DNA from: a phage
Assembly (NCBI GenBank): GCA_038450185.1
Contig: GCA_038450185.1_4765.1
Strand: one strand, 5' to 3'
Length of the DNA: 64,000 nt
Below the pieces are notes generated by a model that was not told the origin of the DNA, did no database searches, and was given only the letters and a program-made list of their open reading frames with translations. Position 1 is the stretch's first letter. Each line of letters starts with the position of its first letter. Made by a program: the position numbers and the translations under genes. Below, piece by piece: positions 11,285-41,978 of the stretch.

Positions 11285-11488
11285 TTAACCGTATACGCGA
11301 AAGTATTCTACTGATCCGTCGCTATATTGTTTTACATTGAATGTATTCACGCCATGATCATTGCTCATAATGACATACACACTGCGACGCTCATCACTAA
11401 ACGGGTTAACTGGTGCTGGTTCAATTTCAACATTAAAACCACGTTTAGCAAGTGCTTCGCCTAATTTCTTGAGTTTATCGGTAAACAT
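11285..11488 (-). CDS. hypothetical protein
   Basis: ORF track; ATG 11488. Confidence 0.4.
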   Translation of the reverse strand: MFTDKLKKLGEALAKRGFNVEIEPAPVNPFSDERRSVYVIMSNDHGVNTFNVKQYSDGSVEYFRVYG

Positions 11489-12366
11489 TAAAAGTCTCCG
11501 TAGTTAACCTGAAAACATTCTACACCAATTGAGCGGTACATGTCAACCACTTGATCACGGTCATCTACTGCCAAAACAACATGATATCGCGGTGCAATTT
11601 CAGAGAAGAAAATCTCTTTCTTTACTTCATGATCAGGACGACGATCATTAGTTTCACGTTGAAAGTGATCACTAGGTTCAATACCCTGTTCACGCAACCA
11701 TTGCAGAGTATCTTCTTCGCAAACATCCTCACGCCCTGAGCATGTAATGATACGATAGCCATTATCACGATACAGTTTAAGCATTTCGACCACTTGCTGA
11801 CGTGGTTTATCTTCTTTGACCTTTGTCCAGTCAAACGGATGACGACCGCCCTTATCCGCTAATGTTCCATCAATATCAAAGATCACTGCCTTTGGCAGCA
11901 TAGTATTCGGTTTGTATACTTCTTGACCCATATATTCCTGCATCAGATAAAATTGGTTGCGCAAATGAGAAAGTGGAATTGCTTTCTCGCCGCGATAGAA
12001 ATTACGTTTCTTTAGTGTCTCAAATGATTCATTGAACACTTGTTCAGTATACACCGCGTTAAATTCTTTTGCAAGTTCTTTGTAGAATACACGATGTTTT
12101 TCTTTCAGGTTAGTATCAGAGATAATGATACTTAATCCGCGTGATAGAGTCTCACGAGCAATCATTCTCTGAATAGACTCTACCAGCTTTTCCTTTTCCT
12201 TAGTATATTTGTATTTCAAAAGTGAGTCAACACCAAACAACATAAGACGAAGGTCATCACGATTCACATTACGATAATTACTAAACCTTTTACATGTTTC
12301 CATAGCCCATGTAGTTTTACCGGACCCAGAACAACCAACGGTTAAAATCACTTCACATTTCGGCAT
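11488..12366 (-). CDS. pseT: polynucleotide 5'-kinase / 3'-phosphatase
   Basis: ORF track 11488..12387, ATG 12366 with AGGAG SD; P-loop GCSGSGKTTWA plus HAD motif FDIDGTLAD. Confidence 0.85.
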   Translation of the reverse strand: MPKCEVILTVGCSGSGKTTWAMETCKRFSNYRNVNRDDLRLMLFGVDSLLKYKYTKEKEKLVESIQRMIARETLSRGLSIIISDTNLKEKHRVFYKELAKEFNAVYTEQVFNESFETLKKRNFYRGEKAIPLSHLRNQFYLMQEYMGQEVYKPNTMLPKAVIFDIDGTLADKGGRHPFDWTKVKEDKPRQQVVEMLKLYRDNGYRIITCSGREDVCEEDTLQWLREQGIEPSDHFQRETNDRRPDHEVKKEIFFSEIAPRYHVVLAVDDRDQVVDMYRSIGVECFQVNYGDF

Positions 12367-12821
12367 TATTTCTCCTTCGGTTTGCACCGTTCCTCATTAA
12401 GTTCTTTTCGATAATAACACATGATCAACTTACTTTCAAGTGTATATCTCTTAATATCCGCAAGCCAGACTCTGAATTTTTGGGAGTCCTCCCACGACAT
12501 AGAAACTCTAGGTTTACCGTCTATTGTATCCACTTTCAGGTCAATGTCAACTTTTTCTATTGGTGCTGGTAGTGGAGGATGTAATTTCGGTTCCTGTGAA
12601 TAATGGTCCATTGTACACGAAGAAAGAGCAAATACAATAGGTACAGCGCAGACATGGATTATGGCGGTCTGAAAATTCTTATGTGCTTTCTTAAACATCC
12701 AGTGTATCACGAAAATTGAAAACACCATCAGGATAATAATAATGCTTGCACCTATCCCCAGATAATCAACAAGATTAAAATTGTTTATCTGCTCTTGCGT
12801 AGACAATATTTCTATGCTCAT
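12366..12821 (-). CDS. membrane protein, possible o-spanin-like lipoprotein
   Basis: ORF track; ATG 12821 with AAGGAGG SD; N-terminal TM segment and internal lipobox-like FALSSC; position matches T4 pseT.2. Confidence 0.3.
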   Translation of the reverse strand: MSIEILSTQEQINNFNLVDYLGIGASIIIILMVFSIFVIHWMFKKAHKNFQTAIIHVCAVPIVFALSSCTMDHYSQEPKLHPPLPAPIEKVDIDLKVDTIDGKPRVSMSWEDSQKFRVWLADIKRYTLESKLIMCYYRKELNEERCKPKEK

Positions 12822-13141
12822 TTAGTCGCCTCCTTTAATTCTTCGGTAAACTCCTTAAATGAATCATTAAGCTGTTTCTCTACCAACTTGGGTTTTTGTG
12901 CTACTACATAGCCTCGTGTAGCGTCTTTCATTGCTTTGTTTTGTTCTTCTGCAAACTTAGTTCTTATTCCGTACATCTCCTTTTGTAGTGAGTCTACGAC
13001 CTTCATCTTTTCATCTGTCTTTTTCTTATATTCTGTAAATTCCTGATTCAGTCGATCTACCTCTTTTTTATTTTCCCACCACATATTGCCACCCACCCCC
13101 AGCAATACAGATATGATAACAATGTATATCAGCTTTGACAT
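12818..13141 (-). CDS. i-spanin-like protein (N-terminal TM, periplasmic coiled coil)
   Basis: ORF track 12818..13192 trimmed to ATG 13141 (MSKLIYIVIISVLLGVGG...); charged helical C-terminus; position matches T4 pseT.3. Confidence 0.4.
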   Translation of the reverse strand: MSKLIYIVIISVLLGVGGNMWWENKKEVDRLNQEFTEYKKKTDEKMKVVDSLQKEMYGIRTKFAEEQNKAMKDATRGYVVAQKPKLVEKQLNDSFKEFTEELKEATK

Positions 13142-28769: not shown

Positions 28770-28777
28770 TATAAATA
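28770..28777 (+). promoter_or_regulatory. T4-type late promoter box TATAAATA upstream of gene 34
   Basis: TATAAATA about 28 nt before the ATG at 28806, followed by AAGGAG RBS. Confidence 0.65.
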
Positions 28778-28805: not shown

Positions 28806-31800
28806 ATGGCAGATTTTTCTCAACATTTCAAGGCCACATTTGGCTTTGACGCTGGTAATGAAAAGGTCGTCAATGTAGCATTGGCTGATAAGAATGTCAA
28901 CACCGATGCGGTCAACGTTGAATTTTTCAATTACCATAATGGTATTACTCAGTATGACACAACTCGCGGTTATGATCAATACGGAACTACAATCTATCAA
29001 AACCGTCCGTATTATGCAAAAGAAGATATCACAAAACCAGCAGGTGACTTTGACCCGACTAAATGGCAAGCACTGCGCACGGACCCACGTTGGGATTATG
29101 TTGCAGCAACTTCCGGCGATACTCCTTTAAAGTCCGGTGATTATATCGCAGCGGACTGTCAGTTTGCAAACTTGACATTCTCAATGCCTACTAATCCGGC
29201 AGAGGGCGACACTATAACAGTAAAAGATATCGGTGGCAAGTGCGGTGTTAATGAGTTATCGTTCCTTGCGGCTGGTCATGAGTTCTATCATAACGGTGTG
29301 GTAAACAACCGCAAATGGTATTGTACTACCCCTTATGCAATGAACTACTTCATTTTTGCTCGCAATCGCTGGCACGTTTACCAGACGGGAACAGAGCCGC
29401 GCGGGGTATATGCACAACCATCTATCGACCCGATTCAGATGCAAAACGGTGATCAGGTATTCCGCCGTAGTTCTTTGGGTAACATTGTTTTGATGCTTCC
29501 TAAGTTTGCTAATAACGGTGATATAATCCAGACTACCGATCTTGACGGATTGACTGCAACCAACCATGTTACGGTAAAAGTGCATGAAGGTGCGCAAGAA
29601 CAATCGATCGGTACTTTCGGGGTAAAAGAAATTGTTGGTAAGCGTAGCGGTCATGGTGTATTCATATTTGACAAACCGGAAAACTTATGGCGTTTGTGGG
29701 ATGGTGATCAGTCTGTTCGCTTGAATCCTATCATTAGTGATACTCGCTTATCCCCCAATAGCTATGTTGCAGTATTTGGTGATCGTGATGTTACCTTGAC
29801 TTTACCGACCAATGTCGAGCCGGGTGATCGTATTCAAGTTTCTATGCAGTATATGCACGGAAACCAGACTTGCCGAATCATTACCTCAGAAGAGGATACA
29901 AAAATCCTTATGCAGAAAAACATGGTTCAGTTTCCTAAGCGTAGCGAGTACCCATTCAATGGGGCCGATACATGGACGGGAGTGTCTGAATTGTCTTTCA
30001 ACGCTGCAAATGATTATGTACCTTATCTGGAGTTCTCTTATTCAGAAGGTGATGATGGTAAGAAATACTGGTTGGTGGCACATGCTCACCCGATTGTAGA
30101 ACGAGTAGATCCGACTCGTAAAGATCGTGTTGGTGTAATTGCACTGGCTACCCAGGATGAAACAAACAAAAACCATGAAGATAATCCTAGCGACGAAGTT
30201 GCGGTGACTCCAAAGGTTCTGGCTAATAAAACAGCCAACGAAACTCGACGCGGTATTGCTCGCATTGCAACTCAAGCGGAAACTCATCAAGATACTGGTT
30301 CCAGCTTCCTGGATGATGTTATCGTTACACCTAAAAAGTTAAATGACTGTGTTGCTACCGAAGCCCGTCGTGGTGTGATGGAAATTGCAACTCAACATGA
30401 AACCAACGAAGGTTTAGACGATACCCGCGCAATCACTCCTAAGAAGTTAGAAGAGCGTCGAGCGTCAGAGGATCTTGCTGGTATCGCTGAAATTGTTCAG
30501 GTAGGCGGTAATGCTGCCGCTCTAAGGGGTGAAGCTGGTACAGGGATCTATAACATCAATGACCATGCTAAAATTGTTACACCGCAAAACATCAACGAAG
30601 TTAAGGCGACCGAAACTTCCCGTGGTGTTGGGTATCTGGCGACGGATGAGGAAGTTCAAGGGGCTACTGAATCAACCCCGCAAGATGCATTGCTGATCAC
30701 TACTCGCACGTTAACCAAGCGCACTGCTACCGAATCCCGTACTGGTATCGCTGAAATTGCAACTCAAGAAGAAACAAACTTAGGCCAAAGTGATGACCAT
30801 ATCATCACACCTAAAAAACTGCATACTCGCCGCGCAACGGAAACTTTACATGGTTTAGCAGAAATTGCAACTCAAGAAGAGTTTGACGCAGGTCTTGACG
30901 ATGCTCGCATTTCTACCCCATTGAAGATTAAAACCTTCTTTGAGAATGCACAGCGTTTGAAAGTAGACCCGACTCAGGGGCTTAACCTTACTGGTGATTT
31001 GTGGCAAGGTATCATGATCAGCGGTCTGGACGCAACCGAAGACACAAAAGGTGTCGCTAAAGTTGCTACTACTCAGCTTACGGATGCTGGTCAAGATGAT
31101 ACTACAATCATCACGCCTAAAAAGCTGCAAGGCAAAAAAGCCACCGAAGGTAAAGAAGGTATTATCCGCGTTGGTACTCAAGCCGAAACCGTGGCTGGTA
31201 CACTGGCTAATGTAGCAATTTCTCCGAAGAACTTCAAATATGTTGTTCAGACAGAGGATACATGGAAAGCAACCGAAGCGCGTCGTGGATTCTTGAAAGT
31301 TGCTACTCAGGAAAACTGTTTTGTTGGTGATAATCTGCAAGGTTCTACTCAAGAACTAGGAAACTACCAGCATGACGGAATTGCTGTTACCCCGAAAGGA
31401 TTAAACTACGCACTTGCTAATTTCTTACCTAAGATGGCAACTGCTCAGAATAGTTTGAAATTGGGTAACGTAGAGGCCGCTAAATGGGCGCGTAGAGACA
31501 TTGACCAGACCATAGAGAGCAATTACACGTTTAATAAAAACGTTAACGTGAAGGGCGATTTAGAGTGCTTAAAATCAGGTTCCTTTGAAACTCTATCTGT
31601 GACTAAGAACTCGACCGATGTTCCGAGTAATGGTCATCTGGTGTTGGGTGAGCGTGGAGTTGACGGTCACACCGGAATTACTCTGCATGGCACAACCGCA
31701 TCGGAAGGCATGAAAAACTCTTGGTCTATTATCGTTGGTGGCACTGGAACAGCGCAAGTTGTTGATAGTGATGCTATCGCTTTCGGTAAAATCAATGATG

Positions 31801-32546
31801 GTGGAGTCGTTGAGCATTACGCCTTTGCTATGAAACACAATGGCGACGCGACAGCATATAGAGACTTTATTGCAGGTCGTAACCTGTATGCGAAACAAGG
31901 CGGTTTATACATTGTTGACCAGTCTAATCCGGCAATGACTCGTTCCCCAGATGGTATGCTGAATATCGGTCACGGTGGAAGTGTTAACATCAAGGCAGGT
32001 CATCAAACGTTAACTACAGAGATCGCCGGACAGAAATATCAGATCGTACACGCAGGAAACGCTGACGAAGTTCTTAACCGTCAGTTTGTTAAGAATGCTG
32101 GCGATACAATGGTCGGTAAGCTGACTATGGATAATGCGCCTATTGTTTCTGTTAAGCATGAAGCTAGCGCGGCAACCGCTCCGGCAATCGGTAACATCGG
32201 TTTCTGGAATATGCGAGTTACTACCCAGAACATCAAAGAAACTTATCCAGAGAAGAAAAACGGTACTCTGATGCAATGGGGTACTGACGCGGACGGGCTT
32301 ACCCAGCTTTGGTCCCCCGATGGTACTCATAAACATTATATCCGTTCCGGTACTGGTGGTCAATGGACCGCATGGGGTGAAATTTACACCAAACAGAATA
32401 AGCCTACCGCTCAGGAAATCGGGGCAGTAGTTGCAGAAGGTGGTTTAATGAACTCTATGACGGTTCGTGATTGGATCAAAGTTGGTAATGTTAAAATCAT
32501 CGCCAATAATCTGACTCGTACCGTAGACTTTATCTGGGAAGACTAA
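28806..32546 (+). CDS. 34: long tail fibre proximal subunit
   Basis: ORF track; 1246 aa; repeated ATETRRGIARIATQ-type motifs and C-terminus as in recalled T4 gp34. Confidence 0.9.
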   Translation: MADFSQHFKATFGFDAGNEKVVNVALADKNVNTDAVNVEFFNYHNGITQYDTTRGYDQYGTTIYQNRPYYAKEDITKPAGDFDPTKWQALRTDPRWDYVAATSGDTPLKSGDYIAADCQFANLTFSMPTNPAEGDTITVKDIGGKCGVNELSFLAAGHEFYHNGVVNNRKWYCTTPYAMNYFIFARNRWHVYQTGTEPRGVYAQPSIDPIQMQNGDQVFRRSSLGNIVLMLPKFANNGDIIQTTDLDGLTATNHVTVKVHEGAQEQSIGTFGVKEIVGKRSGHGVFIFDKPENLWRLWDGDQSVRLNPIISDTRLSPNSYVAVFGDRDVTLTLPTNVEPGDRIQVSMQYMHGNQTCRIITSEEDTKILMQKNMVQFPKRSEYPFNGADTWTGVSELSFNAANDYVPYLEFSYSEGDDGKKYWLVAHAHPIVERVDPTRKDRVGVIALATQDETNKNHEDNPSDEVAVTPKVLANKTANETRRGIARIATQAETHQDTGSSFLDDVIVTPKKLNDCVATEARRGVMEIATQHETNEGLDDTRAITPKKLEERRASEDLAGIAEIVQVGGNAAALRGEAGTGIYNINDHAKIVTPQNINEVKATETSRGVGYLATDEEVQGATESTPQDALLITTRTLTKRTATESRTGIAEIATQEETNLGQSDDHIITPKKLHTRRATETLHGLAEIATQEEFDAGLDDARISTPLKIKTFFENAQRLKVDPTQGLNLTGDLWQGIMISGLDATEDTKGVAKVATTQLTDAGQDDTTIITPKKLQGKKATEGKEGIIRVGTQAETVAGTLANVAISPKNFKYVVQTEDTWKATEARRGFLKVATQENCFVGDNLQGSTQELGNYQHDGIAVTPKGLNYALANFLPKMATAQNSLKLGNVEAAKWARRDIDQTIESNYTFNKNVNVKGDLECLKSGSFETLSVTKNSTDVPSNGHLVLGERGVDGHTGITLHGTTASEGMKNSWSIIVGGTGTAQVVDSDAIAFGKINDGGVVEHYAFAMKHNGDATAYRDFIAGRNLYAKQGGLYIVDQSNPAMTRSPDGMLNIGHGGSVNIKAGHQTLTTEIAGQKYQIVHAGNADEVLNRQFVKNAGDTMVGKLTMDNAPIVSVKHEASAATAPAIGNIGFWNMRVTTQNIKETYPEKKNGTLMQWGTDADGLTQLWSPDGTHKHYIRSGTGGQWTAWGEIYTKQNKPTAQEIGAVVAEGGLMNSMTVRDWIKVGNVKIIANNLTRTVDFIWED

Positions 32547-32579: not shown

Positions 32580-33719
32580 ATGACACAAGAGATAGAATTA
32601 CGCAACACTGGAATTACGTTTGCGCATTTCGACGAAGACTCTGCGACATTTACAAGCATTTCAGAAAACAACTCTGTAATGTATAAGCTGGAAGTGCGCG
32701 GATCTAATGCAGATTCTACCAAACCAGCAAGGATTAGATTTAATGGAGTGGAGATCGTTGGTACTGGCTATGAAAATGGCCTAAATTTTAAAGTTCTTAC
32801 TCCAACTGGACAACTACACGAAGAAAAGGTATTCTATGGTCGCGGTGCTGTTTTGGCAATGCGTGATTATCTTTCTTTGCTGAAAGGTGACTATATCATT
32901 GCGATGGCAACTCATGGAGAATTGTTTGCAGATCCGATAAGTGATGTTGTATTTTCTAAGATGGGATCTGTATCATTCCCGAATCACATTTTGTTACAGC
33001 AAATGCCTCGTGTATCCTATGCAGCAATTTATTCTACTAAAATGGGTAAAATTGTGTGCGAAGGGATGCAAGCAACTAACGGGGAAGGACAAAATTCATC
33101 TATACAAATTGAGAAAGTCTATGATACTATAGATGATCTTGCTATAACAGGAACACCACAACGATTTTTAGATTATCCGGTTGAGTATGTTAGCGAAGAT
33201 GCCGAACATTTCGAGCTAATACAATGGCCTCATGATGAGACCAGCGCCCCACTTGAGGATTTTAACATAAAGGCAGGTGACAAACTATCAATATCCTTTG
33301 AATTGTTCCGTGATAGTGCCGCAGCCGCAGCCAACGTAACAGCGCGTTTCTATCACAACTACTTCACCGATGGACAATATAAAACTGGTGTTCGATACAA
33401 TGCCAGCAAAAAAGACCAGTGGGAAAAGTTTGAAGCAGTCTATACCGTACCGGAAGGTGTCGATAGTGTAGTAACTGGTTGTATCAGATATCCAACCAAC
33501 TCAAATGAAGGTATTGTTAAAATTAGAAACATACTAATAACGCCGATCAGTGGAGTCGTCAAAACTACTGGTCCGACTTCATTTGGTGTTAATGGTGTTA
33601 GAACAACTCATATTCAGGATAACGGTGATTTTACTAACCCTGTAATGAGTCTTCTTAAACTTCCTAGAGACAATAAACATATCACATCCAACAACTTTAA
33701 AGAGTTCGATGTTGATTAA
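32580..33719 (+). CDS. 35: long tail fibre hinge/connector protein
   Basis: ORF track; 379 aa directly after gene 34. Confidence 0.7.
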   Translation: MTQEIELRNTGITFAHFDEDSATFTSISENNSVMYKLEVRGSNADSTKPARIRFNGVEIVGTGYENGLNFKVLTPTGQLHEEKVFYGRGAVLAMRDYLSLLKGDYIIAMATHGELFADPISDVVFSKMGSVSFPNHILLQQMPRVSYAAIYSTKMGKIVCEGMQATNGEGQNSSIQIEKVYDTIDDLAITGTPQRFLDYPVEYVSEDAEHFELIQWPHDETSAPLEDFNIKAGDKLSISFELFRDSAAAAANVTARFYHNYFTDGQYKTGVRYNASKKDQWEKFEAVYTVPEGVDSVVTGCIRYPTNSNEGIVKIRNILITPISGVVKTTGPTSFGVNGVRTTHIQDNGDFTNPVMSLLKLPRDNKHITSNNFKEFDVD

Positions 33720-33879: not shown

Positions 33880-33887
33880 TATAAATA
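33880..33887 (+). promoter_or_regulatory. T4-type late promoter box TATAAATA upstream of gene 36
   Basis: TATAAATA 33 nt before ATG 33921. Confidence 0.65.
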
Positions 33888-33920: not shown

Positions 33921-35411
33921 ATGGCAGATTTGAAATATGGATCTACTGTAGGTGGATCTCCCATTTGGACGCAAGGAAACTTGACGATCCAGCCAGCGGG
34001 GGATCAGCTTTTCTACAAAGGTCATAAAATCTATACCGCTTTTGATAGACCTTCGGCTACCGATTTTGATGCTGTTAGTGCATCTGAAGGTGGCACATTT
34101 CAAAAGCAAGTTCATTTCGAGGAAGGTTTAAGCGTAGGTAGCGCATCGGCTGGAGAAACCAAAAAGAATGGTATCTTTAAAGGTCAGAGTGACGCTGCTA
34201 ATTTTGACGGCGTAAGCTGGGGTTTGCATTCATGGAAGTCAATCGGCTTTGTTAATGCCCGTGATGGCGTTATTATGGCGTATATTGACACCACAACGGG
34301 CGAATTTAAGTCTAAAGGGACTATCGAAGGGACAACCATTAAAGACACAGGTCAACGCGTCTATAGCCCTGTTAATAAACCAACGAATAATGATTTAGAT
34401 TTGGTGTCTCGTCGCGGTGATACTCTCACAGGAACATATAATTTAAACACTGTCACTGTTAAACTATCGGTTGATTCGAAATTAATTGCAAGGGAACGTG
34501 ATTTAATTAATTTTGATGCGACTAAGATCTATTATGGTAACGTTCTTGATACGTTGGTCTTCCGAAGTAAAGATGAGCCTACCATTTTTGTTAATGGCAT
34601 AGAAGGTCGTTTTTATCACACCAACAATAAACCAACTAAAGCCGATGTTGGACTAGGCAATGTCACCAATGATGCACAGGTTAAACGTGCTGGTGATATT
34701 ATGGAAGGTAACTTGCAAGCGCCTAGAATGTTGGCGACAAACGATCCTGCTGGTCCTAATGAATTGGTTCGTTTGAGCTACTTTGAGAGAAAATCAATGG
34801 TAGCAAATCCAACCATCATAGGAAACGTTGATTGGAACACTCTTATTAATCGCGGTATCTATCGTGTGGAAAATGCTGGGTCGGGTACTAATAAACCGTC
34901 TGATAGCTATTATAACGGCGTTTTGATGGTATATCGCCCAGAAGATGCGGTCGGTACTCGTCGAATTGTTCAGGTGTATTATCCTGAATCTATTGACCAT
35001 CCGATGTGCTGGCGTTCGTGTTCTAATGAATCATGGACTGCATGGAACTATGTAGATCACCGTAAATTGGCTGATATTCGCTATGTTAACGTCACTGGCG
35101 ATACCATGACAGGACCGTTAACTGTTCCTGCTGCAAATGGCGTTAGAACGGCTAGAGGTGCATATAATGGTGATAACTACTATGCTGGGTTAAATAGTGC
35201 TGATGGCACTGCTATGATTCACCGTATCAGCGATATTAAAGCCACCGAAAAATTGGGTATTACTCACGATTCTAAAGCTGTTTTCATTAAAGCGCGTGGA
35301 AATACTCAAGACACAGACCGCTATGAACTTTACCACGAAGGCCATAAACCGACACCCGCAGAGGTTGGCGCGGTTCCACTTAATGCGGTGATTGATTTTG
35401 GTACTTTCTAA
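33921..35411 (+). CDS. 36: long tail fibre distal-half small subunit (gp36-like, enlarged)
   Basis: ORF track; position between 35 and 37; 496 aa, much longer than T4 gp36 as I recall it. Confidence 0.65.
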   Translation: MADLKYGSTVGGSPIWTQGNLTIQPAGDQLFYKGHKIYTAFDRPSATDFDAVSASEGGTFQKQVHFEEGLSVGSASAGETKKNGIFKGQSDAANFDGVSWGLHSWKSIGFVNARDGVIMAYIDTTTGEFKSKGTIEGTTIKDTGQRVYSPVNKPTNNDLDLVSRRGDTLTGTYNLNTVTVKLSVDSKLIARERDLINFDATKIYYGNVLDTLVFRSKDEPTIFVNGIEGRFYHTNNKPTKADVGLGNVTNDAQVKRAGDIMEGNLQAPRMLATNDPAGPNELVRLSYFERKSMVANPTIIGNVDWNTLINRGIYRVENAGSGTNKPSDSYYNGVLMVYRPEDAVGTRRIVQVYYPESIDHPMCWRSCSNESWTAWNYVDHRKLADIRYVNVTGDTMTGPLTVPAANGVRTARGAYNGDNYYAGLNSADGTAMIHRISDIKATEKLGITHDSKAVFIKARGNTQDTDRYELYHEGHKPTPAEVGAVPLNAVIDFGTF

Positions 35412-35481: not shown

Positions 35482-38397
35482 ATGGCAGATTTAAGCAGAA
35501 TCCAATTTAAACGTACTAGCACTAAAGGCCGTCGACCTGATGCTGGTACGATGAATCCGGGGGAATTGGCAATCAACCTTGCGGATCAATATCTTCTTAC
35601 TAAAAATGATTCCGGTGCTATTATCAATTTAAGTTGTCCTCCGGTTTATGACAGCGATGTTACAATGGCGGGTAAGGTTAAAGGAAATAATTATATTTTA
35701 AGTAAAACCGCTAATTATTTTGAAGACCAAACCGCGCGAGATCTTAATTATTTTGGTGCGTTTCGACCGAATAATGCTGATGGTTGGTCTAACTTGATTC
35801 TGAACATTCCTCATCCCAGCGGTAAAGCACACGGTCGCGGGTTTGAATTTGAATATGGTTCTAGTTCCTCTCAGGTTAAAACCTATGGCTTTGATAAGGA
35901 TGGTAACAAGAGATTCAGCTTTCGCATGTATCACGAAGGTGATAAACCTACTCCCTCAGAATTGAACGTCTATAGCAAACAAGAAATTGACCGTATGTTT
36001 GTTAAGAACGTTAAAATGGTTGTTCCTTCTGGTGGTGCAACCCGTGGTTATTTTAAAATTGCATCCGCAATGATCCCGCAGAGTGGTCGGATGGCGTTTC
36101 TGCGAATCTATGGTGGTAATGGATATAATGTAAACTCATATGATCAAGTTGATTTTCTTGAAATTGTTATTCGTAGTGGTAATAATAACCCTAAAGGCGT
36201 TAGTATTGCTGCATATCGTCGAAATTCTTTGAACGTCCATGAAGTATTTGCAATTAATACTTCCGGTGATAACTATGACATTTATGTTAACTATGGTCGC
36301 TTCACCGATAACGTTATTGTAGAGTTTGGAAAAACTGTTGATGTTGCATTGACTGTTCACGATGTTCCTGAATTTTCGGCGACTAAACCAGAAACCGGAA
36401 CTAAATTTGATGCTCGTGTTATTACTATGTTCAACACCGAAAACAAAGCCGGAACGTTGATGTTTGATAATAACTCACAAACAACCTATGATATTGTTAG
36501 CCTTAATAACGTACCAGACAACAATAAAAAATATATGCGTAAATTCCGCAGTCGTGCGGCGGAAACAATATGGCATGAAACTGTTCAAGGTGATGTTTAT
36601 CGCCTAGCGACAGGGGCTACCGATCAGAAAGAAGTGTTAAAGATTGTAGGTAGTGATGGTTTATTTGTCAATAGACTTCATCTGCAAGGCAATAACGCGA
36701 TTCGTATGTGGCGTCCTACTGGTTGTAGTAACTATTTTGAATATATGGATCAGCGAGACGGGGCTAATAAACGTCAAGGCTGGTTTGGTTTTGGTTCTAC
36801 AGAAACCAACGATTTTCAATGGTATAGTGACGAAGGTAAAAACTTTGTTAAGCTAGAAGCAAGTGGTCAAGTATCTTTAAGCGCAGGTGCAACCAAAATT
36901 GTATACACTAATGGTCAATATGTAGCTGCCAATTCTGATGCATACCGTATGATCTTTGGTAATTATGGTGCATTCTGGCGTAATGACGGCACTAAAGTTT
37001 ATCTTATGTCTACTGCCGAAAATGATAGATTTGGTGGCTGGAATGCCTATCGTCCATTCATTTATGATTTAACTTCCGGTAACGTTCAATTAGGCGGTGA
37101 TGGTAACGAAGATGCATTAACGTTAGAAAGTGCTTCTCGTGCCGCTCGCTTTAGTAATGACGTTTACATTAAGAAAGGGCTTTTGACTTTCGACGCTGGG
37201 CGATTAAATTCCCGCGATTACTTCCGGTTTAACCATTGGGGCGATAGCAATAACGGTCGCGATAACATTTTACAGCTTGACGATAGCATAGGTCCACACT
37301 TCACCACTGAACGTACTTTAGCAACTGGTTCAATTAAAACTAAATTCTTCGGTAATTTGGAATCTGCTGGTCAAATTAAATGGGGTAAAGGGACCGCCAC
37401 ATCTACGTTTACTCTACGTGTATGGGGTAGCGATAGCCGTAAACAAATATTTGAATGCGGCGATGAAAGCGGGTGGCATTGGTATACCCAACGCGCGGGC
37501 GGTCCTGATACTTCTGCAATTGATTTTGCCATCAATGGTACTGTTAGGCCTCAAGCAATTCACACTGGCGGTAATATCACTATCAACGGTGCTGATATTG
37601 AGTTTAAACGCACTGGCAATAAGCACATCTGGTTTAGAGATCCAAACGGCTTAGAGTTAGGTCTGTTGTACTGCGATGATGCTGGCGTTATGCGTATGCG
37701 CGGTAAGAAACAAACCGAAGTCTGGAAATTCGGCGGTAAGATGATTCAACTTGAAACTGGTACTGTAACCGGTGGCGGTAGTGGTCTGATTCGTGGTAGC
37801 GTTGCTGGTGGTAGTTGGACTAGCTGGCGCGATCGTGCTTCCGGTTTACAGGTCGACTGTCAACAATCAACCGTTTCCGCTCATAACGTATGGAAAGCAA
37901 CCCATCAAGGTAAATATCATATAGCAGCAATGGGTGTACACGTTCCTAGTGGTACTATCGGAAATGCTATGGTGCGTATGCACGTACACGATGCAACTTT
38001 TGACTTTGGTGCGAGCGGTGACTTCCAGGCAAGCCGTAATGGTAATTTTAACGATGTTTATATTCGTTCTGATGCTCGCCTTAAAATCAATAAGGAAGAG
38101 TATAAGGAGAATGCCACCGATAAAGTTAATCGCTTGACGGTATACACCTATGACAAGGTTAAATCTTTAACCGACCGTACTGTCATTGCTCATGAAGTTG
38201 GTATTATTGCTCAGGATCTTGAAAAAGAATTGCCGGAAGCCGTAACAACTTCTAAGATCGGCGATCCAGATAATCCAGAAGAGATCTTAACAATTTCTAA
38301 CTCCGCTGTCAACGCTCTTTTAATTAAGGCGTTTCAGGAAATGAGCGAAGAACTTAAAGCCGTTAAAGCTGAACTAGCGGAACTTAAAAAGAATTAA
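35482..38397 (+). CDS. 37: long tail fibre distal subunit with C-terminal intramolecular chaperone domain
   Basis: ORF track; 971 aa; C-terminal SDARLK ... IAHEVGIIAQDLEKELPEAV ... ISNSAVNALLIKAFQE resembles the self-cleaving S74 chaperone domain. Confidence 0.8.
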   Translation: MADLSRIQFKRTSTKGRRPDAGTMNPGELAINLADQYLLTKNDSGAIINLSCPPVYDSDVTMAGKVKGNNYILSKTANYFEDQTARDLNYFGAFRPNNADGWSNLILNIPHPSGKAHGRGFEFEYGSSSSQVKTYGFDKDGNKRFSFRMYHEGDKPTPSELNVYSKQEIDRMFVKNVKMVVPSGGATRGYFKIASAMIPQSGRMAFLRIYGGNGYNVNSYDQVDFLEIVIRSGNNNPKGVSIAAYRRNSLNVHEVFAINTSGDNYDIYVNYGRFTDNVIVEFGKTVDVALTVHDVPEFSATKPETGTKFDARVITMFNTENKAGTLMFDNNSQTTYDIVSLNNVPDNNKKYMRKFRSRAAETIWHETVQGDVYRLATGATDQKEVLKIVGSDGLFVNRLHLQGNNAIRMWRPTGCSNYFEYMDQRDGANKRQGWFGFGSTETNDFQWYSDEGKNFVKLEASGQVSLSAGATKIVYTNGQYVAANSDAYRMIFGNYGAFWRNDGTKVYLMSTAENDRFGGWNAYRPFIYDLTSGNVQLGGDGNEDALTLESASRAARFSNDVYIKKGLLTFDAGRLNSRDYFRFNHWGDSNNGRDNILQLDDSIGPHFTTERTLATGSIKTKFFGNLESAGQIKWGKGTATSTFTLRVWGSDSRKQIFECGDESGWHWYTQRAGGPDTSAIDFAINGTVRPQAIHTGGNITINGADIEFKRTGNKHIWFRDPNGLELGLLYCDDAGVMRMRGKKQTEVWKFGGKMIQLETGTVTGGGSGLIRGSVAGGSWTSWRDRASGLQVDCQQSTVSAHNVWKATHQGKYHIAAMGVHVPSGTIGNAMVRMHVHDATFDFGASGDFQASRNGNFNDVYIRSDARLKINKEEYKENATDKVNRLTVYTYDKVKSLTDRTVIAHEVGIIAQDLEKELPEAVTTSKIGDPDNPEEILTISNSAVNALLIKAFQEMSEELKAVKAELAELKKN

Positions 38398-38439
38398 GGA
38401 AAAATCCCAGGGAAGGGAAACTATTAAGGAGAAACGGCT

Positions 38440-38679
38440 ATGGTCTATAATATCGTCATTGGTGCTTTGTCTAGTTTCGGAATGAAACTATTATCAAAGT
38501 TAATTAGTGAAAAGATGCTCACTAAAATTTTCTTCTATTGCGCTCGTCGTCTTGCGGCTTATACCAATACGCCAATTGATGATCGTTTTGTGGAAGAACT
38601 TTATAAGGAGTTTAATAAAGATCAGTCAGAAGATAGTAACGAGCAAGATAAACCTAGTGATAGTCAACTACCTAAATAA
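38440..38679 (+). CDS. hypothetical small protein between 37 and holin
   Basis: ORF track; ATG 38440 with AAGGAG SD; occupies the slot where T4 has gp38. Confidence 0.5.
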   Translation: MVYNIVIGALSSFGMKLLSKLISEKMLTKIFFYCARRLAAYTNTPIDDRFVEELYKEFNKDQSEDSNEQDKPSDSQLPK

Positions 38680-38712: not shown

Positions 38713-39369
38713 ATGCAAGTTTCTGAAAAAGGGAAAGACTTTGCTATCTCAAATGTCCTGCGCGCTATTTTCACAACTAAAAGCACGGAGTTGCTCGTAC
38801 TTCGTGTTTTTGCTGCCGTCGTGTTGTCCGTATTGGCATTTGTCGTTTATAGTAAAAACGAGTTATTTGCGCTTTATAAAGAGACTCGTTATGAGACTTA
38901 TGCTCACATTCTCCAGGTAGAGAAAGACCGCAATTTTGATAATGCAGCACAGGAGCAGTTACAGATAGTTCATGTGTCGGCTGATGCCGATTTTTCTGCT
39001 GTTTTTAGCTTTCGTCCGAAAAACCTAAACTATTTTGTTGATTTGGTGGCATATGAAGGAAAGCTACCGCATACGATCGATGAAAAGAATTTAGGCGGAT
39101 TCCCTATCAATAAAACGAGTGAAGAATATCGTAGGCATCTTTTAGGTAAATCATATTTTACCGATAAAGATTTCCAGTATATTCCATCGAGGGAGAAAAA
39201 ATTAGAGAATATCGATATAGGGTTTATGTATTCTTGTCCTATATTCAATCTCGATAATGTCTATTCTGGTAGTATCGCCATTGCATGGAAGAATAAACCG
39301 GATATTGACATTGAGAATTTGGATACTCTTTGCAATCAATCTGCCAGAATCCTCGGAAGGATTAGATAA
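38713..39369 (+). CDS. t: holin
   Basis: ORF track; 218 aa; similarity to recalled T4 holin T (LEQLQIVHVS, FSAVFSFRPKNLNYFVDL, YEGKLP, CNQSARILGRIR). Confidence 0.85.
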   Translation: MQVSEKGKDFAISNVLRAIFTTKSTELLVLRVFAAVVLSVLAFVVYSKNELFALYKETRYETYAHILQVEKDRNFDNAAQEQLQIVHVSADADFSAVFSFRPKNLNYFVDLVAYEGKLPHTIDEKNLGGFPINKTSEEYRRHLLGKSYFTDKDFQYIPSREKKLENIDIGFMYSCPIFNLDNVYSGSIAIAWKNKPDIDIENLDTLCNQSARILGRIR

Positions 39370-41219: not shown

Positions 41220-41978
41220 TTACTTGCAAACGTATTGATCTACATCAATTGCGCCACCGAATGTAGGATGACGTTTTTCGAATCGAATAGTTCCGTCGTT
41301 TGGTTCGAAAACGGAGTATTCATATAGATCTTTCTTGCCAACATTCTTATAAAACCCGCCTTTAGTCATAACGGTTTCTTGTACGTTTGCTTTGTGTACG
41401 TTGTATTCATCAATGTATACAAAATCAACCATCTTCCCATTTTTAATTGTTACTTTAAGATCTCCTGGTTGGTTTCCATATTTGGCATACAGTGGCGCTT
41501 CTTTAATTTTTGTGGAAATTCCATCTTTCATACTCCACTCATAACGAACGGTGCATTGATAGGTAAAAGTTTCGACCTTCGGTTCTTCTACCACTTTTTC
41601 TTCCTGTTTCGGTTGTTCTTCTTCAACCTTCACAGAAGTCTCTGAATCGCTTTCTGACGCGGTTTCTTCTTTAGGTAATACATTCATCAAGTTTTGGATT
41701 TGAGCGTTGTATACAGCCTCCAGTGGCTGAATCTGCCCGATATTGATCATTGTATCACGAACAGTTTTATTCCAGTTGCGTTGCTCTTGTTTCAGAGACG
41801 GATCAATCTTAACAGCTTTAACATATACTTCATGAAGTTTCGAATCCAGTGCGGAGATTGACTCATTAACACAAATAAACTTCTCTGATTTGGTAGTAGC
41901 CTTAGTGCAATCAAAGGACGCAGCATTAGCACCTAAAGCAGTAGCAGAAAGAACGATAGCAGCGATAATGTTTTTCAT
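41220..41978 (-). CDS. secreted protein with DUF1311 / LprI-like N-terminal domain
   Basis: ORF track; signal peptide MKNIIAAIVLSATALGANA; SFDCTKATTKSEKFICVNESISALDSKLHEVY pattern; promoter cassette upstream. Confidence 0.45.
   Translation of the reverse strand: MKNIIAAIVLSATALGANAASFDCTKATTKSEKFICVNESISALDSKLHEVYVKAVKIDPSLKQEQRNWNKTVRDTMINIGQIQPLEAVYNAQIQNLMNVLPKEETASESDSETSVKVEEEQPKQEEKVVEEPKVETFTYQCTVRYEWSMKDGISTKIKEAPLYAKYGNQPGDLKVTIKNGKMVDFVYIDEYNVHKANVQETVMTKGGFYKNVGKKDLYEYSVFEPNDGTIRFEKRHPTFGGAIDVDQYVCK

Follow-up and report, generated by a model that had tools for sequence, protein, structure and literature searches.

The tail-fibre/lysis locus of an RB49-like coliphage: a distal fibre subunit with a predicted self-cleaving chaperone and a putative PM2 P18-family lysis protein in the position of gene 38

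The stretch of phage DNA analysed here (64 kb; referred to as the window) is ~98% identical to Krischvirus (RB49-like) phages outside the fibre genes, and this likeness identifies it as the late block of tail-fibre and lysis genes of an RB49-like, T-even-related coliphage. The tail-fibre/lysis locus of these coliphages is ordinary and has been described previously, so the arrangement is already known. The features of interest are listed in Table 1. The ORF calls confirm the layout given in a preliminary description of the sequence, in which a 79-aa ORF (ORF79) with a good ribosome-binding site is situated between gene 37 and the holin gene; the holin assignment is secure (Pfam Phage_holin_T, E 2e-61; phrog_860 holin, E 4e-88). 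Because there are no terminator-like sites between g36, g37, ORF79 and t, the four genes likely share a late transcript that starts at the T4-type promoter motif upstream of g36, and ORF79 would thus probably be co-transcribed late with the holin gene.

Table 1. Positions of genes and sequence features in the tail-fibre/lysis locus (window coordinates)
Feature	Coordinates	Strand	Basis
T4-type late promoter motif TATAAATA	33880..33887	+	exact motif match; upstream of g36
Gene 37, long tail fibre distal subunit precursor, 971 aa	35482..38397	+	ORF; phrog_1699; nt identity
Gp34_trimer-like domain in the gp37 shaft, aa 418-528	36733..37065	+	Pfam PF21446, E 9.6e-31; PDB 4uxe, 5nxf
Predicted autocleavage site R862^S863 in DVYIR^SDARLKI	38065..38070	+	motif comparison
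C-terminal intramolecular chaperone / Peptidase_S74, aa 863-971, 109 aa	38068..38394	+	Pfam PF13884; alignment to 6F45_A
Shine-Dalgarno AAGGAG, 8 nt before the ATG of the 79-aa ORF	38426..38431	+	direct sequence reading
79-aa ORF, homologue of RB49 ORF251w/dc5, assigned to the PM2 P18/gp l family	38440..38679	+	phrog_402; PF26925; hhalign
Holin t, 218 aa, 33 nt after the end of the 79-aa ORF	38713..39369	+	Phage_holin_T; phrog_860

The gene 37 product belongs to phrog_1699 (E 6e-178; annotated 'long tail fiber protein distal subunit'), and its gene has 87–93% nucleotide identity to its counterparts in RB49-like phages, relative to which the central part of the protein is variable. A phmmer search of full-length gp37 against the PDB returns T4 gp34-like shaft domains only (4uxe, 5nxf), and the alignment of the C-terminus to the S16 gp37 chain 6F45_A (E 2.3e-4) surfaced only when the C-terminal 149 residues were searched alone. 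Residues 863–922 of 971 match Peptidase_S74 (PF13884, E 1.5e-11; the score of 44.8 bits exceeds the cut-off of 22). The first residue of SDARLK is number 863 (nt 38068), and the segment from there to the C-terminus comprises 109 residues; the earlier suggestion that the last ~110 residues from this motif onward follow the intramolecular chaperone/S74 autoprotease pattern is thus borne out.

The motif places a serine at the predicted cleavage site and a lysine five residues downstream (S-x4-K), the spacing described for the Ser-Lys dyad of S74 autoproteases in work on endosialidases and T5. Here the dyad would consist of S863 and K868, in a domain that ends in a helical tail. Cleavage has been mapped to DLNVS^SDRRIKK in S16, with DVYIR^SDGRLKI the aligned motif in the fPS phages (PMC7917993), and the gp37 sequence DVYIR^SDARLKI matches both motifs. 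A homologous chaperone segment is present in 964 phage records, including g37 of T2. From these comparisons we infer that gp37 of this phage cleaves itself and would release 109 residues; the segment would help the fibre trimer to fold and then be removed by Ser863/Lys868 autoproteolysis, exposing the gp37 tip as a docking place for a separately encoded gp38 adhesin.

A gp38 is not encoded behind gene 37, as the preliminary description had it, nor elsewhere in the window, where a tblastn search with RB49 gp38 gives a single match at E=4.3 and inspection of the ORFs reveals no glycine-rich product of ~250 aa. However, RB49 and all of the relatives checked encode a T2/S16-type gp38 adhesin of 257–258 aa (tblastn), with the RB49 protein (RB49p079) matching Pfam GP38 (E 7e-72) as well as Gp38_N. 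In every Krischvirus relative listed the gene is 54–57 kb from g37, a distance that reaches past the window's end. By analogy with these relatives, the gp38 gene of this phage is proposed to be ~55 kb from g37 and outside the window; the gene would have moved in the RB49-like group as a whole, with receptor recognition proceeding on the T2 scheme.

The idea that fibre assembly here departs from both T4 and T2 therefore holds for one of the two. In T4, gp38 is a separate chaperone and receptor binding falls to the tip of gp37 itself (PMC9569957), whereas the present gp37 ends in an S74 chaperone and has no gp38 gene behind it, so its folding would be unlike that of T4. The T2 half of the claim fails, since this chaperone segment is also encoded by gene 37 of T2 and the relatives carry a T2/S16-type gp38; for the same reason the proposal that receptor recognition is unlike that of T2 is not borne out. 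The lack of a g38 beside g37 thus does not imply a gp38-less fibre in RB49-like phages, and host-range prediction for members of the group relevant to therapy must seek the displaced adhesin gene.

The profile search of the 79-aa protein that had been suggested places it in phrog_402 (E 5.5e-20), a family that also contains gp l of phage PM2 (E 8.2e-14). Proteins 92–94% identical to ORF79 carry a precomputed match to PF26925 (Phage_PM2_Gpl), and direct comparison of ORF79 with PM2 gp l by hhalign gives a probability of 88% (E 2.9e-6), although with a modest 20% identity over 40 columns. RB49 was itself named among the phages with P18 homologues in 2007 (PMC1950889). On this profile evidence ORF79 belongs to the lysis-factor family of PM2 P18/gp l and is not a fibre protein, and the earlier statement that its role is unknown is outdated. 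Pfam and NCBIfam scans of ORF79 give nothing meaningful; the Pfam result is empty because the set used did not contain PF26925, and PM2 gp l and the protein P0062 were likewise unmatched. Literature searches for the family name Phage_PM2_Gpl, or for PM2 P18 together with spanins, gave no match.

The family has 320 representatives, nearly all of 55–90 aa; one of them, P0129 (4303 aa), is a repeat-rich adhesin and was discarded as a compositional false positive. In 28 aligned sequences the residues F13, F31, F32, A35, T42, T44, D47 and D48 are invariant or nearly so and form a core FF..A......T.T..DD. ORF79 is cationic and amphipathic in its N-terminal half (net +5), where K16 and E24 are conserved, and acidic in its tail (net -6); it also carries the conserved motif TxTPxDD. 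Neither hydropathy nor the family alignment points clearly to a signal peptide or a transmembrane segment (Kyte-Doolittle averages over 19 residues peak at 1.45), and in PM2 gp l no hydrophobic stretch is seen. An AF2 model predicts three helices with a mean pLDDT of 67, a low-confidence result for a short protein, and the dN/dS of 0.35 relative to RB49 says little, coming from five substitutions only.

Other identities for ORF79 were considered. It is not a divergent gp38, in that the GP38 profiles are unmatched; the GP38 and Gp38_N models both match RB49 gp38, so they work. An adhesin of the T2/T6/S16 type (~250–260 aa) was rejected on the lack of any Pfam match at E<=5, the length of 79 aa and the absence of glycine runs, and an assembly chaperone of the T4 gp38 or lambda Tfa type on the lack of any such Pfam, PHROG or NCBIfam match. 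ORF79 was rejected as a spanin as well: a lipobox cysteine context is lacking, no spanin PHROG is matched, and the genuine spanin genes are at another place in the window. Assignment as a classical holin or SAR-type antiholin was not adopted given its weak hydrophobicity and the conserved charges in its N-terminal half.

In PM2, P18 is required for disruption of the outer membrane at lysis, with permeabilisation of the cytoplasmic membrane assigned to P17 (PMC6356626, PMC9502842). Members of the family adjoin holin genes in Krischvirus (t), Ounavirinae ('putative holin') and PM2 (P17), and directly follow lysozyme genes in Vibrio phages, a Shewanella prophage and a metagenomic phage; the GAP52 and LAh_6 homologues are within the head/tail structural module with no lysis gene alongside. 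P18 or a homologue of it is present in PM2, PaP3, P-SSM2, P-SSM4 and S-PM2 (PMC1950889), and all five are in the published list of spanin-less phages. The present phage has both spanin subunits, which are of the T4 type and are encoded on the minus strand of the window at 12818–13141 and 12366–12821 (see also Kongari 2018), and an outer-membrane disruptor would therefore be redundant. This redundancy, the structural-module setting in GAP52 and LAh_6, the lack of a clear signal for export or membrane insertion and the modest likeness to PM2 gp l all count against an outer-membrane role for ORF79. ORF79 is nonetheless most likely an accessory outer-membrane factor, as judged from its family: a small helical lysis protein, and no fibre component, now in the old g38 position, it would, together with the T4-type spanins, help to breach the outer membrane when holin and endolysin have done their work.

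A quite different interpretation is that the phage has no gp38 at all, that the cleaved gp37 tip binds the receptor as in T5 pb1, and that ORF79 is a new factor in fibre assembly or recognition. The empty window accords with this, as does the occupation of the classical g38 slot by an ORF with a strong ribosome-binding site, but the GP38-family gene common to all of the Krischvirus relatives, the mapping of RB49 host range, including host-range mutations, to gp38 (Golomidova 2022, PMC9569957), a published account of gp38 displacement in RB49-like phages dating from 2011 and the lysis-factor family of ORF79 together make it highly improbable. No more credible is the proposal that the P18 family comprises fibre- or knob-associated assembly or virion proteins whose linkage to lysis genes is incidental. 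The family gene does follow a fibre-like gene in Krischvirus (gp37) and Ounavirinae (tail fibre), a gene for a needle-knob-domain protein in LAh_6 and one for an Ig-like/tail protein in GAP52, and tailspike genes are near it in Vibrio phages. However, PM2 genetics give a lysis role, the Shewanella prophage copy is far from fibre genes, and holin genes often follow fibre genes (T4 t), such that adjacency to fibres may mirror adjacency to holins.

A closer competitor, if still an unlikely one, retains the lysis role and makes ORF79 a partner or regulator of the holin (a co-holin or antiholin-like timing factor) with no part in outer-membrane disruption. The three types of holin beside which the family is found (T, the 'putative holin' with TM plus coiled-coil, and P17) are unrelated, spanins are already present in the phage, and the cationic amphipathic half and acidic tail of ORF79 would suit binding to a membrane surface. 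Against this, the phenotype of PM2 P18 concerns the outer membrane and it is P17 that acts on the cytoplasmic membrane, the Vibrio and Shewanella copies have no recognisable holin beside them, and RB49 already has rI for lysis inhibition.

Around the observed domain and family assignments, gene order and gp38 genes of the relatives, the whole scheme (an S74-type gp37, a displaced gp38 and ORF79 as a P18-family accessory lysis factor) has in our estimate a probability of roughly 0.75. More tentatively, and with the odds somewhat against it, ORF79 could be a spanin-independent factor that disrupts or weakens the outer membrane of a T4-like coliphage host in parallel with the spanins, for example when divalent cations stiffen that membrane. 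If so, the P18 family would be a widespread third route to outer-membrane breach, given its presence also in Ounavirinae and in several 'spanin-less' phages, and one that could be studied directly in E. coli. The role of a P18-like protein in phages that have spanins also bears on how the 'spanin-less' phages breach the outer membrane.

The closest known systems are RB49, Phi1 and JSE (Krischvirus), which share the order g37–ORF251w(dc5)–t and the same holin t, have a 79-aa ORF that is 96% identical at the protein level and differ allelically only, with the centre of gp37 variable; the ORF starts with GTG in RB49 and with ATG here. The distal fibres of S16 and T2 (PDB 6F45) resemble the present gp37 in having an S74 chaperone at the C-terminus and S-x4-K as the motif for cleavage, and the GP38-family adhesin encoded by the relatives of this phage has glycine-rich motifs and, at its N-terminus, an attachment domain that contains Trp. 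In S16 and T2, however, g38 directly follows g37, whereas in RB49-like phages it is ~55 kb away with the lysis-family ORF in its slot, and ahead of the cleavage site the present gp37 is unrelated to that of S16 except for the last residues. The g34-g35-g36-g37 module, the late promoters before g34 and g36 and the T-type holin downstream are shared with T4. The gp37 of T4 has no S74 domain, whereas the present one does.

Pseudoalteromonas phage PM2 P18 (gp l, 51 aa) shares with ORF79 PHROG 402, the Pfam family Phage_PM2_Gpl, a location adjoining a holin gene and a helical pattern K-L-L-x-E...A-K/R-x-L-A...T-x-x-D. ORF79 is the larger by 28 residues, having an additional hydrophobic stretch at the N-terminus as well as the acidic tail, and is encoded upstream of the holin gene rather than downstream; moreover, the present phage has spanins whereas PM2 is catalogued as spanin-less (Kongari 2018). 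The Ounavirinae (Felix O1, Moogle, Sf14) have a homologous small ORF (~45% identity) in the order fibre–small ORF–holin-like gene, but there the ORF is paired with a protein of phrog_4038 that combines a TM with a coiled coil, and not with a T-type holin.

The 79-aa ORF between gene 37 and the holin gene t is preceded by the Shine-Dalgarno sequence AAGGAG, 8 nt 5′ of its ATG, bearing out the good ribosome binding site ascribed to it in the preliminary description. It has no match in the local Pfam and NCBIfam libraries, although that Pfam copy lacks PF26925 (Phage_PM2_Gpl), since PM2 gp l is also unmatched there. It does match phrog_402 (E 5.5e-20), as does the 51-aa PM2 gp l (lysis factor P18; E 8.2e-14), and PM2 gp l aligns to the profile of the ORF family with a probability of 88% (E 2.9e-6). 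Precomputed PF26925 assignments are present on proteins 92–94% identical to the 79-aa ORF and on all more distant members. P18 homologues are reported to be encoded by PaP3, Felix O1, RB49, P-SSM4, S-PM2, and P-SSM2 (Krupovic and Bamford 2007, PMC1950889), and because RB49 is among them the family assignment is already in the literature, while genome annotations still say hypothetical. The small ORF had been described as having an unknown role; the profile search instead places it in the published PM2 P18 family.

Homologues are present in 388 phage records (tblastn), with ~95–100% identity in Krischvirus (RB49-like) phages, ~45% in Ounavirinae, and others in Vibrio, Erwinia, Aeromonas, and Cronobacter phages. 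Residues F13, F31, F32, A35, T42, T44, D47, and D48 are conserved, and the alignments establish the homologues as a genuine family. Searched against 1.84 billion representatives, the family profile recovers 320 members, nearly all stand-alone proteins of 55–90 aa. A 4303-aa bacterial cadherin/Big_9-repeat, repeat-rich adhesin (P0129) reached E 4e-11 with this profile by way of ten short T/D-rich repeats and was rejected as a compositional false positive; such hits call for caution when mining the family.

The RB49 record has two overlapping annotations for the counterpart (locus L001, 6001–6240): ORF251w (79 aa, GTG start) and dc5, a 65-aa version that begins at an internal ATG. The long start is an ATG in the window, and conservation of the N-terminal residues in the family alignment supports the 79-aa form over the dc5 call. 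An AF2 model built with 28 sequences predicts, at modest confidence (mean pLDDT 67), three helices (residues 2–21, 24–41, and 45–65), and the net charge is +5 in the first 45 residues and −6 in the last 34. Hydrophobicity averaged over 19 residues peaks at only 1.45, in a stretch interrupted by the conserved K16 and E24, so that the protein sequence shows no evident signal peptide, lipobox, or classical transmembrane segment.

Coordinates of features in the window and in related phages
Feature	Record	Coordinates	Strand	Basis
g34	window	28806–32546	+	ORF call
g35	window	32580–33719	+	ORF call
g36	window	33921–35411	+	ORF call
g37	window	35482–38397	+	ORF call, 971 aa
79-aa ORF	window	38440–38679	+	ORF call
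holin t, 218 aa	window	38713–39369	+	Pfam Phage_holin_T E 2e-61; phrog_860
T4-type late promoter motif TATAAATA	window	28770–28777	+	exact match, directly 5′ of g34
T4-type late promoter motif TATAAATA	window	33880–33887	+	exact match, directly 5′ of g36
i-spanin	window	12818–13141	-	phrog_739, E 8e-27
o-spanin	window	12366–12821	-	phrog_812, E 2e-32
Partner gene after P18-like gene	Ounavirinae L002	6186–6560
Partner gene after P18-like gene	Ounavirinae L007	3701–4036
Partner gene after P18-like gene	Ounavirinae L013	5203–5523
gp k (holin P17), 53 aa	PM2 L014	9780–9941
g37	Sf20	87467–90709
g38	Sf20	146128–146901		tblastn
g37	GoldenSnicker	65048–68253
g38	GoldenSnicker	122089–122862		tblastn

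The locus is an ordinary, published, and already known RB49-type arrangement, the RB49 record having the same gene order (37, ORF251w or its shorter alternative dc5, t). Gene 37 and the 79-aa ORF are 87–93% identical to those of RB49-like phages, and the downstream 22.6 kb is ~98% identical to many Krischvirus genomes. A motif search finds no T4-type late promoter before g37, the 79-aa ORF, or t, suggesting that t is transcribed by read-through from the g36 promoter; there are no terminator-like sites between g36, g37, the 79-aa ORF, and t. The 496-aa gp36 has a weak Pfam Phage_T4_gp36 match below the cut-off (E 2.6e-4), and its N-terminus (MADLKYGS...) has a motif in common with gp37 (MADLSRIQ...) and is tied to distal-subunit families by PHROG matches. 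Residues 66–133 of gp35 have a sub-threshold Pfam match to ILEI, an interleukin-like EMT inducer domain (E 5e-4; 20.9 bits, cut-off 27), which probably reflects a shared beta-rich fold only, or chance.

P18 is described as needed for outer-membrane disruption in PM2 lysis, in the accounts of Krupovic et al. 2007 given by PMC6356626 and PMC9502842. In Krischvirus the P18-like gene directly precedes t, in PM2 it is the next gene after that for holin P17, and in two lineages of Vibrio phages, in a Shewanella prophage, and in a metagenomic phage it immediately follows a lysozyme gene. In Ounavirinae it directly precedes the gene for a protein (106–124 aa, phrog_4038) that the Moogle and Sf14 records call a putative holin and whose single N-terminal TM helix and long coiled coil match the architecture of P17; the P17-like and P18-like genes may constitute a conserved two-gene cassette with reversed order. 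From homology and context, we infer that in this phage the 79-aa protein would be made late together with the holin and would act in lysis; most probably it would join the spanins in destabilising the outer membrane after the holin and endolysin have done their work.

The main rival is that the protein is a holin partner or timing factor, a role that would be consistent both with its position beside three unrelated kinds of holin and with the presence of spanins. Published work lists PM2, PaP3, P-SSM2, P-SSM4, and S-PM2 as lacking identifiable spanins and reports spanins for RB49 and Felix O1 (PMC6139136); the window has a T4-type pair adjoining pseT (11488–12366). For the o-spanin, the region matched by the profile starts at residue 55 of a mechanically called 151-aa ORF, so the true start is probably internal. 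In GAP52 and LAh_6 the P18-like gene is within the head/tail structural module with no adjacent lysis gene. A role in fibre assembly is less likely. Separately, a 252-aa protein with a signal-peptide-like N-terminus (41220–41978, minus strand), positioned equivalently to RB49 ORF260c (annotated hypothetical), matches Pfam LprI, a lysozyme inhibitor, at residues 24–76 (E 5e-5; 24.1 bits, cut-off 22); for a lytic phage, such a secreted protein could be relevant to the control of lysis or to superinfection.

As first described, gp37 ends in an S74 chaperone: Pfam Peptidase_S74 ('chaperone of endosialidase') covers residues 863–922 (E 1.5e-11; 44.8 bits, cut-off 22), and SDARLK begins at residue 863, leaving 109 residues for predicted release. 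Used alone as a query, the last 149 residues of gp37 align with the chaperone segment of its counterpart in Salmonella phage S16 (PDB 6F45, E 2.3e-4), with DVYIRSDARLK opposite DLNVSSDRRIK. S16 is cleaved at DLNVS^SDRRIKK, which has been aligned to DVYIR^SDGRLKI of other T4-like phages (PMC7917993), and the predicted site here is DVYIR^SDARLKI. Homologues of the segment are present in 964 phage records, including T2 gene 37.

No gp38 gene follows g37 or is present elsewhere in the 64-kb window, as the preliminary description held for the interval before the holin, and, judging from the relatives, it is probably missing at the g37 locus only. Two Pfam models, GP38 (E 7e-72) and Gp38_N (E 6e-18), hit RB49p079 (258 aa; NC_005066 45367–46143, minus strand), which has glycine-rich runs typical of T2/S16-type adhesins. 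The gene is present in every Krischvirus relative listed, Sf20 and GoldenSnicker among them, 54–57 kb from g37 (tblastn), a position equivalent to ~94 kb in window coordinates and past the 64-kb end; its displacement in RB49-like phages is already in the literature (Trojet et al.). The 79-aa ORF is excluded as gp38. In RB49 the gp38 monomer attaches to gp37 once the self-cleaving chaperone domain is removed, and host-range mutations map to gp38 (Golomidova et al. 2022, PMC9569957). By analogy we infer that gp37 would trimerise aided by its C-terminal chaperone, cleave itself at R862^S863, and then take a gp38 adhesin monomer encoded elsewhere, in which receptor specificity would reside. The proposal of a fibre arrangement unlike both T4 and T2 thus stands for T4 and is not upheld for T2: the displaced gp38 of the relatives, the RB49 literature, and the T2 chaperone homologue point to the common T2/S16-type design, which differs from that of T4.
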